This document shows, piece by piece, positions 31,686 to 44,586 of a stretch of DNA of 64,000 bases. Source of the DNA: Candidatus Micrarchaeota archaeon (GTDB taxonomy: Archaea; Micrarchaeota; Micrarchaeia; Anstonellales; Bilamarchaeaceae); the NCBI GenBank assembly GCA_040754495.1, contig JBFMCO010000022.1, positions 18,233 to 82,232 of the forward strand. Direction: 5' to 3'. The first letter of the stretch is position 1; each line of letters begins with the position of its first letter. The position numbers and the translations under genes were made by a program. The notes below the pieces were generated by a model that was not told the origin of the DNA, searched no databases, and worked only from the letters and a program-made list of their open reading frames with translations.

Positions 31686-31777
31686 GTTTCTTTTTCCCTT
31701 ATTTTTCCCTTTTCTCTATTCTTCAAGACCCTAGACCGGAAACTGGAAACCGCAAGTCATACCTGAGGCCCGGGAGT

Positions 31778-37996: not shown

Positions 37997-38165
37997 GGGC
38001 TCGTAGCTCAGCATCTTGAGGGAAAAGCGCCTAACAATGGGTTTTGGCCCAGCTTTTCCCAAAAGCTGGAAGCAGAGCACTCGCCTTGCAGTTTCCTCGA
38101 AACCGGAAACGGGAAACAGGAGACCGGAACGCGAGGGGCCGGGGGTGCGAGTCCCCCCGAGTCCA
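37997..38165 (+). tRNA. tRNA-Ala(UGC)-like with two introns (D-loop and canonical 37/38) and an atypical T-loop (UGCGAGU)
   Basis: Acceptor GGGCUCG/CGAGUCC with discriminator A. GCUCAGC|about 56-nt intron|UGGAAGCAGAGC. Anticodon stem CUCGC/GCGAG, loop CUUGCA|about 39-nt intron|C. T-stem GGGGG/CCCCC. Confidence 0.55.
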
Positions 38166-39650: not shown

Positions 39651-40175
39651 ATGGAGAAGAAGGCAGAGGGGATTGTAGAGATCGTTTCGGCAGCAGCCAT
39701 CGCCGGAGCTGTCCTTTATTTCTCGAGCGACATATCGGCCCTCGGCTCCTATGGGTATGCCGGGGCATTCCTCATAGCGATGCTCAGTTCGGCCACGATA
39801 ATATTCCCTGCGCCAGGCTGGGCTGCGGTGGTGGCCCTCAGCGGCACCCTGGACCCCCTTCTTCTTGGCATAGTGGTGGGGGCGGGCTCCGCCATCGGCG
39901 AGATTACGGGCTACCTTGCCGGCGACGGCGTGCGGGACATCATGAACAGCCGGCTGAAGGAGGCCAGGAAGTTCGAGGATTTCGTGAAAAAATACGGAAT
40001 CATGGCGATAGCCGTGCTAGCGTTCATACCCAACCCCCTATTCGACATAGCCGGGATTATAGCAGGCGGGCTGAGGATACCGTGGTGGAAGTACCTACTC
40101 TCATGCGCTGCAGGCCGGATAATCAGGTATGTGCTCCTTGCTTACATCGGGGCGTTCACGATAGGCCTGCTCTAG
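39651..40175 (+). CDS. DedA / SNARE-associated (VTT-domain) membrane protein
   Basis: FLIAMLSSATIIFPAPGWAAVVALSG..LYFSS, typical DedA organisation. Confidence 0.7.
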   Translation: MEKKAEGIVEIVSAAAIAGAVLYFSSDISALGSYGYAGAFLIAMLSSATIIFPAPGWAAVVALSGTLDPLLLGIVVGAGSAIGEITGYLAGDGVRDIMNSRLKEARKFEDFVKKYGIMAIAVLAFIPNPLFDIAGIIAGGLRIPWWKYLLSCAAGRIIRYVLLAYIGAFTIGLL

Positions 40176-40295
40176 CCTGATGGGAACGTATATAAAGAGG
40201 GAAAAACATAATTATCTGCTTAAAAAAGGGACAAAGTTCGCAAGAAATCTGTTTCTGCGGCCCTTTTTGATACAAAATTACAGGGAGGTGGGGAG

Positions 40296-40751
40296 ATGAA
40301 GATGGGGGCAATAGACCTGGATATCCTGCGGGAGCTGCGCGAGAACTCAGACAGGCCGGTGCGGGAGCTTGCCAAGAAGATGGGATTGCACCCGAACACC
40401 CTGCTGCAGCACATAAGGAAGATGGAGAGCAGCGGCATCATCGTGAAGTATACGGCAGAGATAGACTACACCAAGCTCGGCTACGACCTGCAGGCTCTTG
40501 TGATGATAAAGGTCGGCAAGGAGGTCCGGAGCGACTGGAAGGTTCTCGATGAGCTGCGCGCGTTCAAGGACGTCTCGGCGCTCTATGCGATAACCGGGGG
40601 CTACGACCTTTGCGCCATCGTGAAGACGAAGAACAGGGAAACGCTCGCAAACCTGCTCTCCGAGATAAACAAGAGGCCGTACGTGGTCGAGACGAACACG
40701 ACGCTCATGCTCCACGCTTTCAAGCACGCGTACGAGTTCAACCCGCTCTGA
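40296..40751 (+). CDS. Lrp/AsnC-family transcriptional regulator
   Basis: DLDILRELRENSDRPVRELAKKMGLHPNTLLQHIRKMESSGII followed by a RAM domain. Confidence 0.8.
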   Translation: MKMGAIDLDILRELRENSDRPVRELAKKMGLHPNTLLQHIRKMESSGIIVKYTAEIDYTKLGYDLQALVMIKVGKEVRSDWKVLDELRAFKDVSALYAITGGYDLCAIVKTKNRETLANLLSEINKRPYVVETNTTLMLHAFKHAYEFNPL

Positions 40752-40754
40752 GGC

Positions 40755-41690
40755 TCAGTCCTTGTGGAATACCATGCCATACATGTCATGGTATTCGTCT
40801 ATCCTCTTCCGCATCAGCGTGGCAGGCACATAGTGGAATCCGGTGAGCTGGAAGATGGAGCTGATTTCAGGAATCTGGAGGACGGTGACGGCGATGCGTA
40901 TAAGCCTGGCCAGCTTCTGGACTTCATTGTCATCCGGATGGAGGTCCGTCCTGACGACAAGGGGCGACTCCTCGATGGAAATGAGCCTGCCTCCAGGGGG
41001 GAGCGTGTTGAAAAGCATGCTGGCGACGTTGCATTTCTCATCCGAGCCCCTGATCCAGTGCATGACGTAAGACAGGATGGCGGTCCTTACTTCCCCGCCG
41101 TCCTCCACCTCGCGGAGGTCCTTTGCGTCCCTGCACTCGAAGCGGACACGCAAGAGCTCCAGCTCCCGCACCATCAGCTGCATTTTCCGCCCGTCGTCGG
41201 AGTCAACGATGTGGAGCGATGCGGGGTGGATGCCCGGGGATACGAAAGGCATGGACTCGATGAGCCTCTGCATCGCATTCCTCACGTTGGCCCGTGCCAG
41301 GCCGAGCATCACTTCCGACATGTCCAGCAGTATGAACTTGAGGGGGAGCTTCGGCACCTGGAGCAGGCTGTCCTGTGTGGAGAGGACTTCTGCGGACATG
41401 CTCACCATGAGGTTAGCGGAAAGGACGCCGGTGCCGCATCCCAGTTCCGCAATCGGGCCGGCCGAATGCCCTTCGGCGACATAGTTCCTGAGAATCTCGA
41501 GCGCAATCGGGTGGTGGCTTTCGCGCATCCATTCATCGTAGCGCGGCGCGAACCTTTCCGTAGCCCGGAGCACGGTTGCCAGGGTCGGCGGTTTCATGAG
41601 ACGGGCGTCCGGCGAGCGGCTTATGATAAGCGGCATCGGCCTTCCTGAAGCCATAGAATTGCCGCCTGCGTCCCCTCCCATTATACCCAC
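40755..41690 (-). CDS. Class I SAM-dependent methyltransferase
   Basis: ELGCGTGVLS motif I. Confidence 0.6.
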   Translation of the reverse strand: MGIMGGDAGGNSMASGRPMPLIISRSPDARLMKPPTLATVLRATERFAPRYDEWMRESHHPIALEILRNYVAEGHSAGPIAELGCGTGVLSANLMVSMSAEVLSTQDSLLQVPKLPLKFILLDMSEVMLGLARANVRNAMQRLIESMPFVSPGIHPASLHIVDSDDGRKMQLMVRELELLRVRFECRDAKDLREVEDGGEVRTAILSYVMHWIRGSDEKCNVASMLFNTLPPGGRLISIEESPLVVRTDLHPDDNEVQKLARLIRIAVTVLQIPEISSIFQLTGFHYVPATLMRKRIDEYHDMYGMVFHKD

Positions 41691-41730
41691 AGGGATATAT
41701 GTTCTACCATTTATTTAAAAAGGCTTCCGC

Positions 41731-42687
41731 TCAGGAGGGTTTCTTGAAGCAGAGGCAGCGCATCTCGCCCCAGTAATCCGGAGGCAGGCCCGGGCCGCGG
41801 AGCACCTCGGCCAGGCGGACCACTTCCACCCGCGTCTCGGCCGCGGCCTGCATGTCGGTCTCGGCCACCCGGGCTATCCACTTGTCCCTCACCCAGCCGG
41901 AAACATCCTCGCTCATGTCGAGCGGGCGGCTTATGAATGCCAGGAGCTTGGCGCCTTCGGAGCCGACGACGCCGTAGGGAAGGGGCAGCCATGGGTAGAC
42001 GTCCATAATTATGAACCGCCCGCCGTCCCTCAGGAGGTCGAACGCATTCGTCATCACGGCCCCCCTGCTCGCCAGCGTCTGGAAAGAGCCCCACCAGAGG
42101 ACTATGTCGAACATGGCCGGCTTCACCACCGGGCTTTCCCGGACGAGGCCCTCCATGGAGAGGTCGATTGACGCCATCGTGACGGCCTTCCCGTCCGGCC
42201 TGATGAACTCCGCCAGGTTCGACCTCGCTATTAGGTTCAGCTCGGGCGACACCTCGTTGGCGAATACGCGCAGGCCCGAGTTAGCGGTGTGGAGGAGATA
42301 GCGCGACACCATCCCGGTGCCGCAGGTGGCATCAAGGATGAGTTTCGCGTGGTTGATGTCAGGCACGAGGGACCGGAGCTTCATCCAGTTGACCGCGATA
42401 GCGGTATACTGGCCCGTCAAATCCATGAAGACGTCGAGGGAGCTCCCGCCGCCCTCGTGCGGGCGGGCCAGATACCCGCCCGTGGTAACCCGGACGGCCC
42501 CGAAGCCTCTTTCGCGCAGGACTTCATCTTCGTGCTGGCTTCCGTTTCCGAAAAGCGCGGGTGATTCTTCCACAAGCGGGGCAGCGCCGCCGCCTGCGCG
42601 GCGCAGGCCGGAGATGGGGACGCTCCGCTCGCCCTGGACTACGAACACGCGCTGGGGCTTCCTGAAACGTTCCGGCATATCACCCAC
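41731..42687 (-). CDS. Class I SAM-dependent methyltransferase, adjacent to the previous one
   Basis: LDATCGTGMVS motif I. Confidence 0.6.
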   Translation of the reverse strand: MGDMPERFRKPQRVFVVQGERSVPISGLRRAGGGAAPLVEESPALFGNGSQHEDEVLRERGFGAVRVTTGGYLARPHEGGGSSLDVFMDLTGQYTAIAVNWMKLRSLVPDINHAKLILDATCGTGMVSRYLLHTANSGLRVFANEVSPELNLIARSNLAEFIRPDGKAVTMASIDLSMEGLVRESPVVKPAMFDIVLWWGSFQTLASRGAVMTNAFDLLRDGGRFIIMDVYPWLPLPYGVVGSEGAKLLAFISRPLDMSEDVSGWVRDKWIARVAETDMQAAAETRVEVVRLAEVLRGPGLPPDYWGEMRCLCFKKPS

Positions 42688-42816
42688 TCGGGACTTTATT
42701 AGACTGGAAAGGTATTTAAGTTATTATATATGTCGCGTCTTGGATAATAACGCGTTGCACCCGGAAAACAGAACTCGGGCCCGGGGCACTGAACCGGAAA
42801 CCGGCTGCCGGGGGCT

Positions 42817-42853
42817 GGATGCAGGAAAAAAATAGCGGGGGGTAGATTTGAAC
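42817..42853. repeat. 37-bp direct repeat, copy 1: a partial duplicate of the initiator-tRNA 3' end plus its oligo-T flank
   Basis: ggatgcaggaaaaaaatagcggggggtagatttgaac is identical to 42960..42996. Confidence 0.8.
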
Positions 42854-42959
42854 CCCCAGCCTTTTTATAATCGGAATCCTGGCCCCGGAGAAAAAGGCTA
42901 GGGTTAACCCAAAAACCAGTTTCTCGGAACCCTGAACCCGAAACGGGAAACCGGAAACA

Positions 42960-42996
42960 GGATGCAGGAAAAAAATAGCGGGGGGTAGATTTGAAC
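42960..42996. repeat. 37-bp direct repeat, copy 2; it overlaps the 3' end of the initiator tRNA gene
   Basis: Identical 37-mer. Sequence after the repeat differs between the copies. Confidence 0.8.
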
Positions 42997-43080
42997 TACC
43001 GGTCCCTGGGTTATGAGCCCAGTGGGAACTCCAAGCTTCCCATAGGGCAAATTCTAGATGTTAGAATTTGTTACCCCGCT
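42976..43080 (-). tRNA. Initiator tRNA-Met(CAU) with a ~30-nt intron near the D-arm
   Basis: Minus strand: AGCGGGG..CCCCGCU-A gives an A1:U72 pair. Anticodon stem CUGGG/CCCAG has three G:C pairs next to the loop CUCAUAA. T-arm GGUAG-UUCAAAU-CUACC. AGCGGGG and CCCGCUA match archaeal tRNAi. 105 nt versus about 75 mature. Followed by TTTTTTT. Confidence 0.65.
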
Positions 43081-43221
43081 TTGCTTGGAGCACTTTAACC
43101 CAGATTGTCCTAACAGAAGTCAGAACGAGAATAATTAGCGGGCTAATGCTTTATAATGGTGATTGAAATTCAGGCGCTAGATGAAGTAAAAGAGAAAGAA
43201 GGAGAAAAGGGAGGAAGAAAC

Positions 43222-43812: not shown

Positions 43813-44586
43813 TTAGGATAAAGTAAAATAAATCCTCCTGTTGTCCTTCCCCTTGTTGTCGAGACGGAGTATGGCTATCCTGCCTACCTCCGCAAGGCTC
43901 CGCACGTGAGTCCCGCCGTCCGCCTGGACGTCTATGCCGGGAATCTCGACGATGCGAAGCTCGCTTATGGATGGCGGCAAAGCGCCTGCAAGCTTCACGA
44001 CGCCAGGTATCTTCATCGCTTCCGCGCGCGGAAGAGTATAGACCTTGAGCGCTGCGCCGCTTGAGAGCGCGTCGTTCGCCTTCCGGACGATTTCCTCGAA
44101 TTGCGGGCGGTCGAACGAAGCGAGGCTGAAGTCGAAGCGCGCCTTGTCCTCCTCGAGCTGATTTCCCGTAATCAGCACGCCGAGCTCCTTGTACATGGCA
44201 GCTCCGAGCACGTGCGCTGCCGTGTGCATGCGCATGAGCTTGTAGCGCCGCTCCCAGTCTATCACGCAGCGGACATGGTCGCCGGCCCCGAGTTTCCAGT
44301 TCCCGGTTTCGTCTTTGGGTTCAGCGTCCAGAAGGTGGACGATTTGGCCGTCTTTCTTGAATACGTCCACGACACTGAACACGGAACCGGGAGCGGGCGG
44401 CCCTGCGCCGGAGACCGGCTGCCCGCTGCCGGAAACCAGCGCGATGCTGCCCCGGTCGGCAGGCTGGCCGCCGCCCCTCGGATAGAACACGGTCCTGTCG
44501 AGGACGACCTCCTTGCCGCTCACCGACAGGACCTGCGCGGCGCACTCGCGCATGTAGCTGTCATCGAGATAAAGGGCCTGGCTCAT
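43813..44586 (-). CDS. alaX: AlaX-type misacylated tRNA(Ala) editing deacylase
   Basis: HTAAHVLGAAM (HxxxH) and DGGTHVRSL (CxxxH-type zinc motif variant). AlaRS editing-domain homolog of about 250 aa. Confidence 0.75.
   Translation of the reverse strand: MSQALYLDDSYMRECAAQVLSVSGKEVVLDRTVFYPRGGGQPADRGSIALVSGSGQPVSGAGPPAPGSVFSVVDVFKKDGQIVHLLDAEPKDETGNWKLGAGDHVRCVIDWERRYKLMRMHTAAHVLGAAMYKELGVLITGNQLEEDKARFDFSLASFDRPQFEEIVRKANDALSSGAALKVYTLPRAEAMKIPGVVKLAGALPPSISELRIVEIPGIDVQADGGTHVRSLAEVGRIAILRLDNKGKDNRRIYFTLS

Follow-up and report, generated by a model that had tools for sequence, protein, structure and literature searches.

The initiator tRNA gene (tRNA-iMet) of a Candidatus Micrarchaeota archaeon is accompanied by a second copy of its own 3′ end. 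We analysed a 64,000-nucleotide stretch (hereafter, the window) of contig JBFMCO010000022.1 from assembly GCA_040754495.1, a metagenome-assembled genome (MAG). In this window the end of the gene and its terminator form an exact direct repeat on the minus strand, in which one copy (copy 2, 42960-42996) completes the functional gene and the other (copy 1, 42817-42853) lies downstream as a displaced tail. We tentatively interpret this arrangement as an attachment-site (att)-like insertion-duplication scar, or miniature insert, and not as an occupied or freshly excised element. The points that resemble the footprint of a recombinase are a break exactly at the border of the T stem and the T loop, a replacement tail, empty sites in relatives, a patchy spread, a module that is conserved amid unalignable surroundings, and recurrence in other phyla.

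The repeat, GGATGCAGGAAAAAAATAGCGGGGGGTAGATTTGAAC, occurs in two exact copies of 37 nt that are separated by 106 bp (143 from start to start). With up to three mismatches allowed, the window holds just these two matches, and dinucleotide shuffles of the window give zero. Gapless similarity around the repeat covers 72 nt at 83% identity (42782-42853 versus 42925-42996), and a gapped alignment adds ~40 nt on the low-coordinate side (score 35.5, versus 16.3 ± 3.0 in shuffles). The 37-mer is the still-identical core of a longer duplication of ~95 bp, consisting of tRNA positions G53 to A73 and the ordinary downstream spacer of the tRNA. The overall layout is block-palindrome-block, with the ~95-bp block present twice and a 50-nt palindrome present once. 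Homology breaks off exactly at G53, at the T-stem/T-loop border (between G52 and G53), and the part of the spacer upstream of G53 has no detectable similarity to the tRNA body (alignment, p = 0.2-0.56). The arrangement is not a simple tandem repeat: Tandem Repeats Finder gives no period-143 array, and the unit as a whole is not repeated head to tail. An assembly artefact, which the preliminary description of this locus had considered, is excluded in practice, as the repeat persists in the independent assembly GCA_964540525.1 (locus L206) with the same layout and a 35-nt exact repeat.

Copy 2 comprises the last 21 bases of the initiator tRNA gene and 16 nt of trailer: G53, the T loop, the 3′ T stem, the 3′ acceptor strand, the discriminator A (42976), a T7 run that directly follows the discriminator (42969-42975) and CCTGCATCC. 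The gene itself is recognized by Rfam (RF00005, model positions 10-63 at 43041-42984). Direct reading of the tRNA gives acceptor halves AGCGGGG/CCCCGCU with an A1:U72 pair, three G-C anticodon-stem pairs and a CAU anticodon, and the precursor fold contains the acceptor stem, an intron hairpin, the D arm and the T arm (z = -3.9). The exon boundaries are confirmed by the intronless orthologues at loci L041, L209, L213 and L208, whose exons are identical bar a few positions. The preliminary description had proposed the 37-bp repeat with its 106-bp spacing, and had assigned copy 2 to the T loop, 3′ acceptor and oligo-T flank of a minus-strand initiator tRNA; both coordinates hold, and Rfam, fold and direct reading agree on the assignment. 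ARAGORN overlooks the gene. As an annotation warning, tRNA scanners overlook both the real gene, with its non-canonical intron, and the pseudo-tail.

As a duplicate, copy 1 is dead: it lacks a 5′ half and its T stem has been replaced. GGGGG precedes it at the place where the 5′ strand of the T stem, GGTAG (GGUAG in RNA), is expected; the junction reads GGTAG-TTCAAAT-CTACC in the gene, GGGGG-TTCAAAT-CTACC at copy 1, and AAAAAGGCTGGGGG-TTCAAAT-CTACC as the module junction. It was thus correctly noted earlier that copy 1 adjoins different sequence that rebuilds a GGGGG/CCCCC hairpin. An A run and a T run lie on either side of this hairpin, which is rated terminator-like whichever strand is read and competes with the palindrome for the same G run. 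Transcription termination in archaea needs a T run alone. ARAGORN and Rfam give no tRNA model match for copy 1, and no second tRNA 5′ half or other copy of the module is present in the window. The 106-bp spacer contains no open reading frame beyond one of 17 codons (42848-42901, plus strand; MNPQPFYNRNPGPGEKG), which has a TTG start within copy 1 and a TAG stop in the left palindrome arm. This frame is open in the window, L206 and L041, the three that were translated; between the window and L206 four codons differ, three of them synonymously, which are too few changes to call it coding.

The spacer between the copies was previously described as carrying a GAAAC-rich, intron-like module. This description did not survive: the GAAAC-rich part is a heptad repeat that is also found at two intergenic sites in the window and in the native spacers of relatives. 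The first ~60 nt of the spacer resemble the flank after copy 1 (score 35.5, versus 16 ± 3) and the native tRNA-iMet spacers of two relatives, namely L209, which has no duplication (50-52, versus 17 ± 3), and L095 (48.5-50.5, versus 17-18 ± 3.4). The match to L209 extends to the stop codon of a convergent VTT/DedA gene. Over half of the insert is therefore a copy of the normal downstream spacer of tRNA-iMet and not foreign DNA. The remainder includes the 50-nt palindrome, which folds on its own with -21.6 to -24 kcal/mol. The five genomes that carry the module (see below) do not differ in the palindrome arms or in the G run beside them, and GAAACTGGTTTTTGGGTTAACCC, at the end of the native-like spacer, is nearly invariant; the palindrome loop and the heptad spacer vary.

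Two other origins for the palindrome were tried and rejected. If it is treated as a decayed tRNA body in which the TTATAA box would be what is left of the anticodon loop after mutation, its alignment is not significant, and as a copy of the 3′ end of the VTT gene it has no homology. Rfam contains no family for the spacer. Heptads of the form GTTYCNG occur in the window at 42924-42959, 42750-42800, 31730-31750 and 38097-38117, all on the minus strand and with variable copy number, and the latter two tracts are intergenic and away from tRNA-iMet. A match at 44292-44312 (plus strand) falls within the AlaX gene. The window has six matches versus 0.02 expected, and heptads also lie downstream of tRNA-iMet in relatives.

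We compared 26 tRNA-iMet loci of the Micrarchaeota type. The module is present in five of these 26, i.e. the window and four other genomes, and most relatives, 16 of them in the comparison, lack it; six loci without the module have a different hairpin. The second tRNA tail is exact in three carriers and decayed in two (Table 1). In the ~1.1 Mb of loci that were fetched, a covariance model detects no copy of the module beyond these five, which always lie at the tail of tRNA-iMet, either before a methyltransferase block (window, L206) or before VTT (L041, L214, L216). Empty sites are known for both contexts: the tRNA is joined to the methyltransferase genes with no module in L208 and L114, and to VTT in L209, L213, L010, L035, L002 and L005, among others. 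In a neighbour-joining tree of AlaX, which is a mere proxy for counting gains and losses, the carriers fall into three separate clades, each nested among relatives with empty sites. L206 is close to the window (AlaX 91% and methyltransferase 96% identical). L041 is far more diverged, with AlaX just ~69-74% identical and other intergenic DNA unalignable, and its module core is nevertheless 91% identical to that of the window over 79 nt (E = 6e-23). An AlaX-based scan of metagenomes gave mostly distant loci and one useful one, L127. The preliminary description had held that the same duplication at equivalent loci of relatives would speak for a structural feature of the gene, and the outcome is divided. 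Since five of 26 loci share the duplication, it is an inherited or recurrent module and not a fresh strain-specific event; since most relatives lack it, it is not a structural feature of the gene.

The relatives also indicate which of the two tails is the original. In L041 the decayed distal tail is followed by TATCCTTAT and a hairpin that we call hairpin C, and these same two elements directly follow the intact tRNA in L085, L095 and L127, which have no module. The distal tail is thus the original one in L041, because its flank is what follows the intact tRNA in module-less relatives, and the proximal tail, the spacer and the palindrome together are the added part. Furthermore, the two tails change in concert. 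The window has T7CC-TGCATCC in both copies, and L206 has T5AC-TGCATCC in both. In L041 the proximal flank is a mosaic, in which the first 38 nt match the distal flank of the close relative L214 (36/38) and the last 25 nt match the proximal flank of L214 (23/25). The co-change of both copies between sister genomes points to gene conversion, and movement of sequence between the two units explains why a perfect 37-mer lies inside an otherwise diverged duplication.

Hairpin C itself occurs directly after tRNA-iMet in six Micrarchaeota as GCGGGC-UUUGGACGG-loop-CCGUCCAAA-CCAA-CCGCUA followed by a T run. Its stem has compensatory changes (GGAC/GUCC versus GAAC/GUUC), its right half resembles a decayed tRNA tail, and Rfam has no family for it. 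In L054 it is flanked by ~20-nt direct repeats of the tRNA end and trailer. It is absent from the window, and L041 has it together with the module.

We propose that one recombination event joined the gene, at the T-stem/T-loop border (G52/G53), to a short DNA segment. This segment would have carried its own tRNA-iMet tail, a copy of the usual tRNA spacer and the 50-nt palindrome, and its insertion would have been of the Campbell type and att-like. The functional gene would now end in the incoming tail (copy 2), and the old tail (copy 1) would have been displaced 143 bp downstream, still joined to its original flank, which runs into the methyltransferase promoter. The insert would be a miniature non-autonomous module of 127-143 bp with no open reading frame and no recombinase. 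It would be older than the split of the window's organism from GCA_964540525.1, with older versions at the same tRNA in three other Micrarchaeota, and its two repeat units would keep exchanging sequence by gene conversion. We infer that the junction is the work of a site-specific recombinase and not of illegitimate recombination, and that the module lacks any essential function and acts at most as a transcription stop composed of a hairpin and T run.

This interpretation draws on what is seen at known integration sites. Tyrosine integrases that target tRNA genes reportedly place their crossover at one of three sites: the anticodon loop, the T loop or the 3′ end. The T loop is said to define a sublocation class of integrase sites, and the archaeal elements that target tRNA genes are said to include SSV-type and pNOB8-type elements. 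The present repeat is like the attL/attR pair of such elements in that it duplicates the 3′ part of a tRNA with one copy completing the functional gene, has its breakpoint at the T loop, continues in identity beyond the 3′ end, and has empty sites in relatives; tRNA-iMet is also a recurrent target in other archaea. It is unlike them in that only 106 bp separate the repeats, with neither an integrase nor cargo, and with no free form found. It also differs in that more than half of the insert is native-type spacer, that the same tiny module is present in five genomes, and that the repeats are homogenised.

Recurrence outside Micrarchaeota was surveyed by scanning genome contigs for a 21-mer of the tail, which gave many phyla among the matches listed, though not the window's own genome. 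Among the matches listed, Nanoarchaeota, Altiarchaeota, Bathyarchaeia and an unclassified archaeon have duplicates of the tRNA-iMet tail that lie 100-210 nt apart and start within the T loop or beside it. In Bathyarchaeia, integrase-like open reading frames lie directly after tRNA-iMet, as read from the downstream sequence with no domain search. More generally, the tRNA tail flanks integrase-like open reading frames or tRNA-fragment remnants in loci of Bathyarchaeia and Thermodesulfobacteriota. Loci with tail duplicates, open reading frames or tail fragments outside Micrarchaeota are L025, L084, L061, L058, L023, L031, L019, L123 and L036. In the woesearchaeote L123 the interval between exact tails contains one open reading frame of 258 codons and no integrase, and in Thermodesulfobacteriota the fragments are of bacterial fMet tails.

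A close published case is that of Caldiarchaeum subterraneum, in which a fragment of a tRNA-Thr gene and an intron gain are linked to a mobile element (Sugahara et al. 2012, PMC3293823) and were read as by-products of integration and recombination (PMC3293823). Similarly, in the window a tRNA fragment lies beside an intact intron-bearing copy, and intron content differs between very close genomes (the window and L206). In Caldiarchaeum, however, the fragment is a 5′ piece that lies 1.8 kb away with a recombinase gene between, whereas here it is a 3′ piece that lies 143 bp away with no gene between. The module also resembles miniature inverted-repeat transposable elements (MITEs) and elements like the repetitive extragenic palindromic (REP) type, in that its short palindrome has arms that are conserved around a loop that varies, and the target is duplicated on both sides. 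It differs from MITEs, since there is one copy in the window and none outside tRNA-iMet in the 1.1 Mb of loci, the duplicated target varies from 21 to ~95 bp, and the inverted repeats are internal to the duplication and not terminal.

Several results weigh against a scar of this kind. Pfam identified no integrase or recombinase between or beside the repeats among the five adjacent genes, a search that covered part of one 64-kb window, and ten further open reading frames of the window gave no Pfam match at all, including one flagged by a crude regular expression for tyrosine recombinases. IMG/VR has zero matches to the 37-mer, to the palindrome arm with the T loop, to the left arm and to hairpin C, and the JGI metagenome contigs have zero matches to the right arm with the T loop. 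Searching phage and plasmid collections with the whole unit (blastn) gave chance matches, plus short matches to haloarchaeal plasmids that were not examined further. These collections thus gave no free, attP-bearing form, and in the fetched loci the module is found at tRNA-iMet only. Moreover, 127-143 bp is implausibly small for a circular molecule that integrates. The five copies share an internal junction, which implies descent from one module and not independent decay of large elements. The majority of the insert is ordinary tRNA-iMet spacer, which a plain tandem duplication explains equally well. That the palindrome arms stay unchanged across five diverged genomes suggests selection, for which a dead scar has no need. 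The preliminary description had likened the locus to an attL/attR scar or a collapsed or excised element, to be followed up by looking for an occupied site in relatives and for an integrase or circular element with the 37-mer. What stands of this proposal is the displaced tail, the T-stem/T-loop breakpoint, the empty sites in relatives and the recurrence in other phyla. An integrase, cargo and a circular or viral counterpart did not emerge from the window genes tested, IMG/VR, or the phage and plasmid collections, and nothing is now integrated at the repeat beyond 106 bp of non-coding DNA.

A rather less probable explanation, though one that remains a serious candidate, is a local tandem duplication with no mobile element. 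Here, illegitimate recombination or template switching would have copied the block from the T loop to the end of the spacer (~95 bp), the palindrome would be fold-back filler at the junction, and the allele would have spread by descent and by homologous exchange among Micrarchaeota through the conserved tRNA and flanking genes, with repeated loss by recombination between the direct repeats. The block-palindrome-block layout, in which the blocks are homologous to each other and to native spacers, fits this explanation. The last bases of the native-like spacer are also part of the left palindrome arm, of which the right arm is an inverted copy, neither a recombinase nor foreign DNA was found, and gene conversion between the blocks is apparent. 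Easy and precise loss through the 21-37-bp direct repeats could also account for the patchy distribution. However, fitting this history to the AlaX tree needs at least six independent losses, or transfer of the allele. Furthermore, the breakpoint lies exactly at the T-stem/T-loop border, as recombinase sites do, and recurs there in unrelated phyla, and the invariance of the palindrome amid a diverging spacer is left unexplained.

It is unlikely, but deserves consideration, that the module is maintained by selection, whatever its origin. It could act between the tRNA and its neighbour as an insulator or as a transcription stop in both directions (A run, hairpin, T run), or give rise to a small RNA ending in ...CCGCUA that mimics the acceptor and T arm of a tRNA. 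Consistent with such roles, the palindrome arms and the hairpin of the G run and T loop either stay the same across the five genomes or change in a way that keeps the pairing (G-C to G-U), in contrast to the variable loop and heptad flank. The hairpin is terminator-like on both strands, the module lies between convergent genes in L041, L214 and L216, and in relatives hairpin C, with its compensatory stem changes, CCGCTA and T run, occupies the same place. On the other hand, the second tail has decayed in L041 (two changes) and L216 (three changes), so its exact sequence is not needed, and most relatives manage without the module. Sites with a hairpin and T run are not enriched in the genome (17 found, versus 16.3 expected), and the covariation is not significant in what is an underpowered test (39 of 500 shuffles reach it). 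The module has no match in Rfam, and no promoter lies at a workable distance: a TATA-like box ends 10 nt before G53 of copy 1, and reads TCTA in L216.

In principle, copy 1 could serve as a split-tRNA 3′ half, or as an alternative 3′ exon joined to the tRNA body by splicing. Split-tRNA 3′ halves are known in Nanoarchaeum and Caldivirga (Chan et al. 2011, PMC3218864). Like them, copy 1 is a free-standing tRNA 3′ segment with a complete T loop, 3′ acceptor strand and T run, and the organism tolerates non-canonical introns; but there is no promoter ~25 nt upstream of a transcript start, no leader complementary to any 5′-half trailer and no second 5′ half in the window, the GGGGG in the T-stem 5′ strand mismatches CUACC, the tail has decayed in L041 and L216, and an intact gene for the same tRNA (42976-43080) lies 143 bp upstream with a T7 terminator between, which together make this explanation very improbable.

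Table 1. Features of the tRNA-iMet region in the window, genomes that carry the module, and positions of hairpin C
Feature	Position	Strand	Basis or remarks
Initiator tRNA (CAU) gene	42976..43080	-	Rfam RF00005, fold, orthologues
Exon 1	43080-43072	-	AGCGGGGUA
Non-canonical intron, ~30 nt	43071-43042	-	between tRNA positions 9 and 10
Exon 2	43041-42976	-	GGGAAGCUUGGAGUUCCCACUGGGCUCAUAACCCAGGGACCGGUAGUUCAAAUCUACCCCCCGCUA
Copy 2, functional tRNA tail (G53 to A73), T7 terminator and CCTGCATCC	42960..42996	-	repeat search, direct reading
Proximal spacer, five tandem heptads GTTYCNG (CNGRAAC on plus strand)	42924..42959	-	Tandem Repeats Finder period 7, motif search
GAAACTGGTTTTTGGGTTAACCC, end of native-like spacer	42901..42923	-	corresponds to GGTTTTTGGATAAACCC just before VTT stop codon in L209
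Palindrome, 50 nt	42854..42903		13-bp arms CCCTAGCCTTTTT / AAAAAGGCTGGGG (one G.T), 24-nt loop with TTATAAAAA box
Hairpin GGGGGT-TCAAATCT-ACCCCC (RNA: GGGGGU-UCAAAUCU-ACCCCC)	42838..42857		formed by copy 1 and preceding G run
Copy 1, displaced non-functional tRNA tail	42817..42853	-	G53-A73 42853-42833, T7 42832-42826, CCTGCATCC 42825-42817
Flank after copy 1, second diverged heptad-spacer copy	42740..42816	-	leads into methyltransferase promoter (TATA ~42722-42735)
Methyltransferase gene	41731-42687	-	Pfam
Methyltransferase gene	40755-41690	-	Pfam
Lrp/AsnC	40296-40751	+	Pfam
VTT/DedA gene	39651-40175	+	tblastn
Carrier: window, Candidatus Micrarchaeota MAG			second tail 37-nt exact repeat; start-to-start 143
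Carrier: L206, GCA_964540525.1			second tail 35-nt exact repeat; start-to-start 127
Carrier: L041, DeMMO3_13			second tail decayed to CCCCC-GTTA (2 changes); start-to-start 138
Carrier: L214, Logan SRR5198901			second tail 21-nt exact; start-to-start ~135
Carrier: L216, GCA_976560605.1			second tail with three substitutions; start-to-start ~100
Hairpin C	L041 2619-2656; L085 6764-6801; L095 243-280; L127 1890-1927; L054 6947-6979; L086 100-136		

The neighbours of the repeat are genes for two class-I methyltransferases, the editing protein AlaX, an Lrp/AsnC regulator and a 189-aa unannotated membrane protein with 100% identity to one from an NCBI MAG. The methyltransferases, AlaX and the membrane protein assign the window to Candidatus Micrarchaeota (DPANN). 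The methyltransferase genes were pointed out earlier as lying immediately beside the repeat, and they are indeed directly beside copy 1. They are not its cargo, since they also occur at the unduplicated sites of L208 and L114: in L208 the whole methyltransferase-methyltransferase-Lrp block lies between tRNA-iMet and VTT/DedA, and in L114 the junction of tRNA and methyltransferase is the same as in the window. The divergence of the methyltransferases at these two loci is similar to that of AlaX. The methyltransferase promoter block is conserved in L206, L207, L208 and L114, and its TATA box is ~100 nt from the distal tail in the window, close to the ~83 nt that separate it from the real tRNA in L208. 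That the locus is an occupied or just-excised integration site with the two methyltransferase genes as cargo is therefore most improbable, despite their position and the varying content of the tRNA-iMet-VTT interval, as they lie outside the repeat pair and no third tRNA tail or tRNA fragment is present near VTT in the window.

The interval between tRNA-iMet and VTT/DedA (40176-42975 in the window; also L066, L108, L114 and L208) differs in gene content among genomes. It holds nothing, hairpin C, the palindrome module, the methyltransferase-methyltransferase-Lrp block, a 183-aa protein (L066), which by eye we take to be YdeI-like, or a 320-aa protein (L108), and it is a local insertion hot spot.

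The initiator tRNA gene is variable in its introns as well. The intron of the window lies at position 9/10 (30 nt); the sister MAG (L001/L206, 1-75) has none there and instead has one of 43 nt in the anticodon stem. In L005 (2890-2935) the intron is in the T loop, L049 has two introns, and 14 loci have none; the comparison also covers L010, L035, L054, L066, L086, L095 and L210. Intron turnover is thus very fast among these genomes. The contig of L001/L206 breaks inside the intron, and population heterogeneity may be the source of this break. Free-standing genes for LAGLIDADG homing endonucleases lie directly beside the tRNA in two loci, one of them intact (L049, first 660 nt downstream of tRNA-iMet, opposite strand) and the other frameshifted (L210, 3916-4570, upstream of tRNA-iMet). 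Directly upstream of tRNA-iMet, the window has the 5′ leader CUGGGUUAAAGUGCUCCAAGC (43081-43110, minus strand), which is conserved at the same place in L001, L054, L010, L035, L066, L086, L049, L095 and L127, and part of which, CUCCAAGC, is complementary to the D-loop sequence GCUUGGAG. Other relatives have a different type of upstream region, with a TATA box ~45 nt from the gene. Elsewhere in the window, a second tRNA (375-540, plus strand; Rfam 40 bits) has two long inserts, of ~40 nt in the D-loop region and ~58 nt in the anticodon loop, and ARAGORN gives just a partial ‘tRNA-Gly’ at 461-540. The window also contains an open reading frame of 6841 codons (1946-22471, plus strand), possibly a giant surface protein.

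A broader and more speculative idea, which we regard as distinctly doubtful, is that the palindrome module and hairpin C represent a class of miniature insertion modules not described before, which lack a recombinase and home to the one initiator tRNA gene of Micrarchaeota, at its T loop or 3′ end. Such modules may pass from one lineage to another (at least three acquisitions), and with each arrival the gene would receive a new tail while its old one is displaced. With the fast intron turnover and the nearby LAGLIDADG genes, the initiator tRNA may then be a battleground of host and selfish DNA. In a variant of this idea, the modules may be expressed mimics of the tRNA acceptor.

Repeats of tRNA 3′ ends are a standard footprint of integrating elements. 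The footprint described here encloses just a conserved palindrome of ~50 nt and a copy of the host's own spacer and is common to diverged DPANN genomes, and gene conversion evidently maintains its identity. A mobile module would be smaller than any tRNA-targeting insert described so far, and the essential, single-copy initiator tRNA gene would be often remodelled in these reduced genomes. If it is a scar only, it would still be a clean marker by which recombination and gene conversion can be followed in Micrarchaeota that are uncultured.

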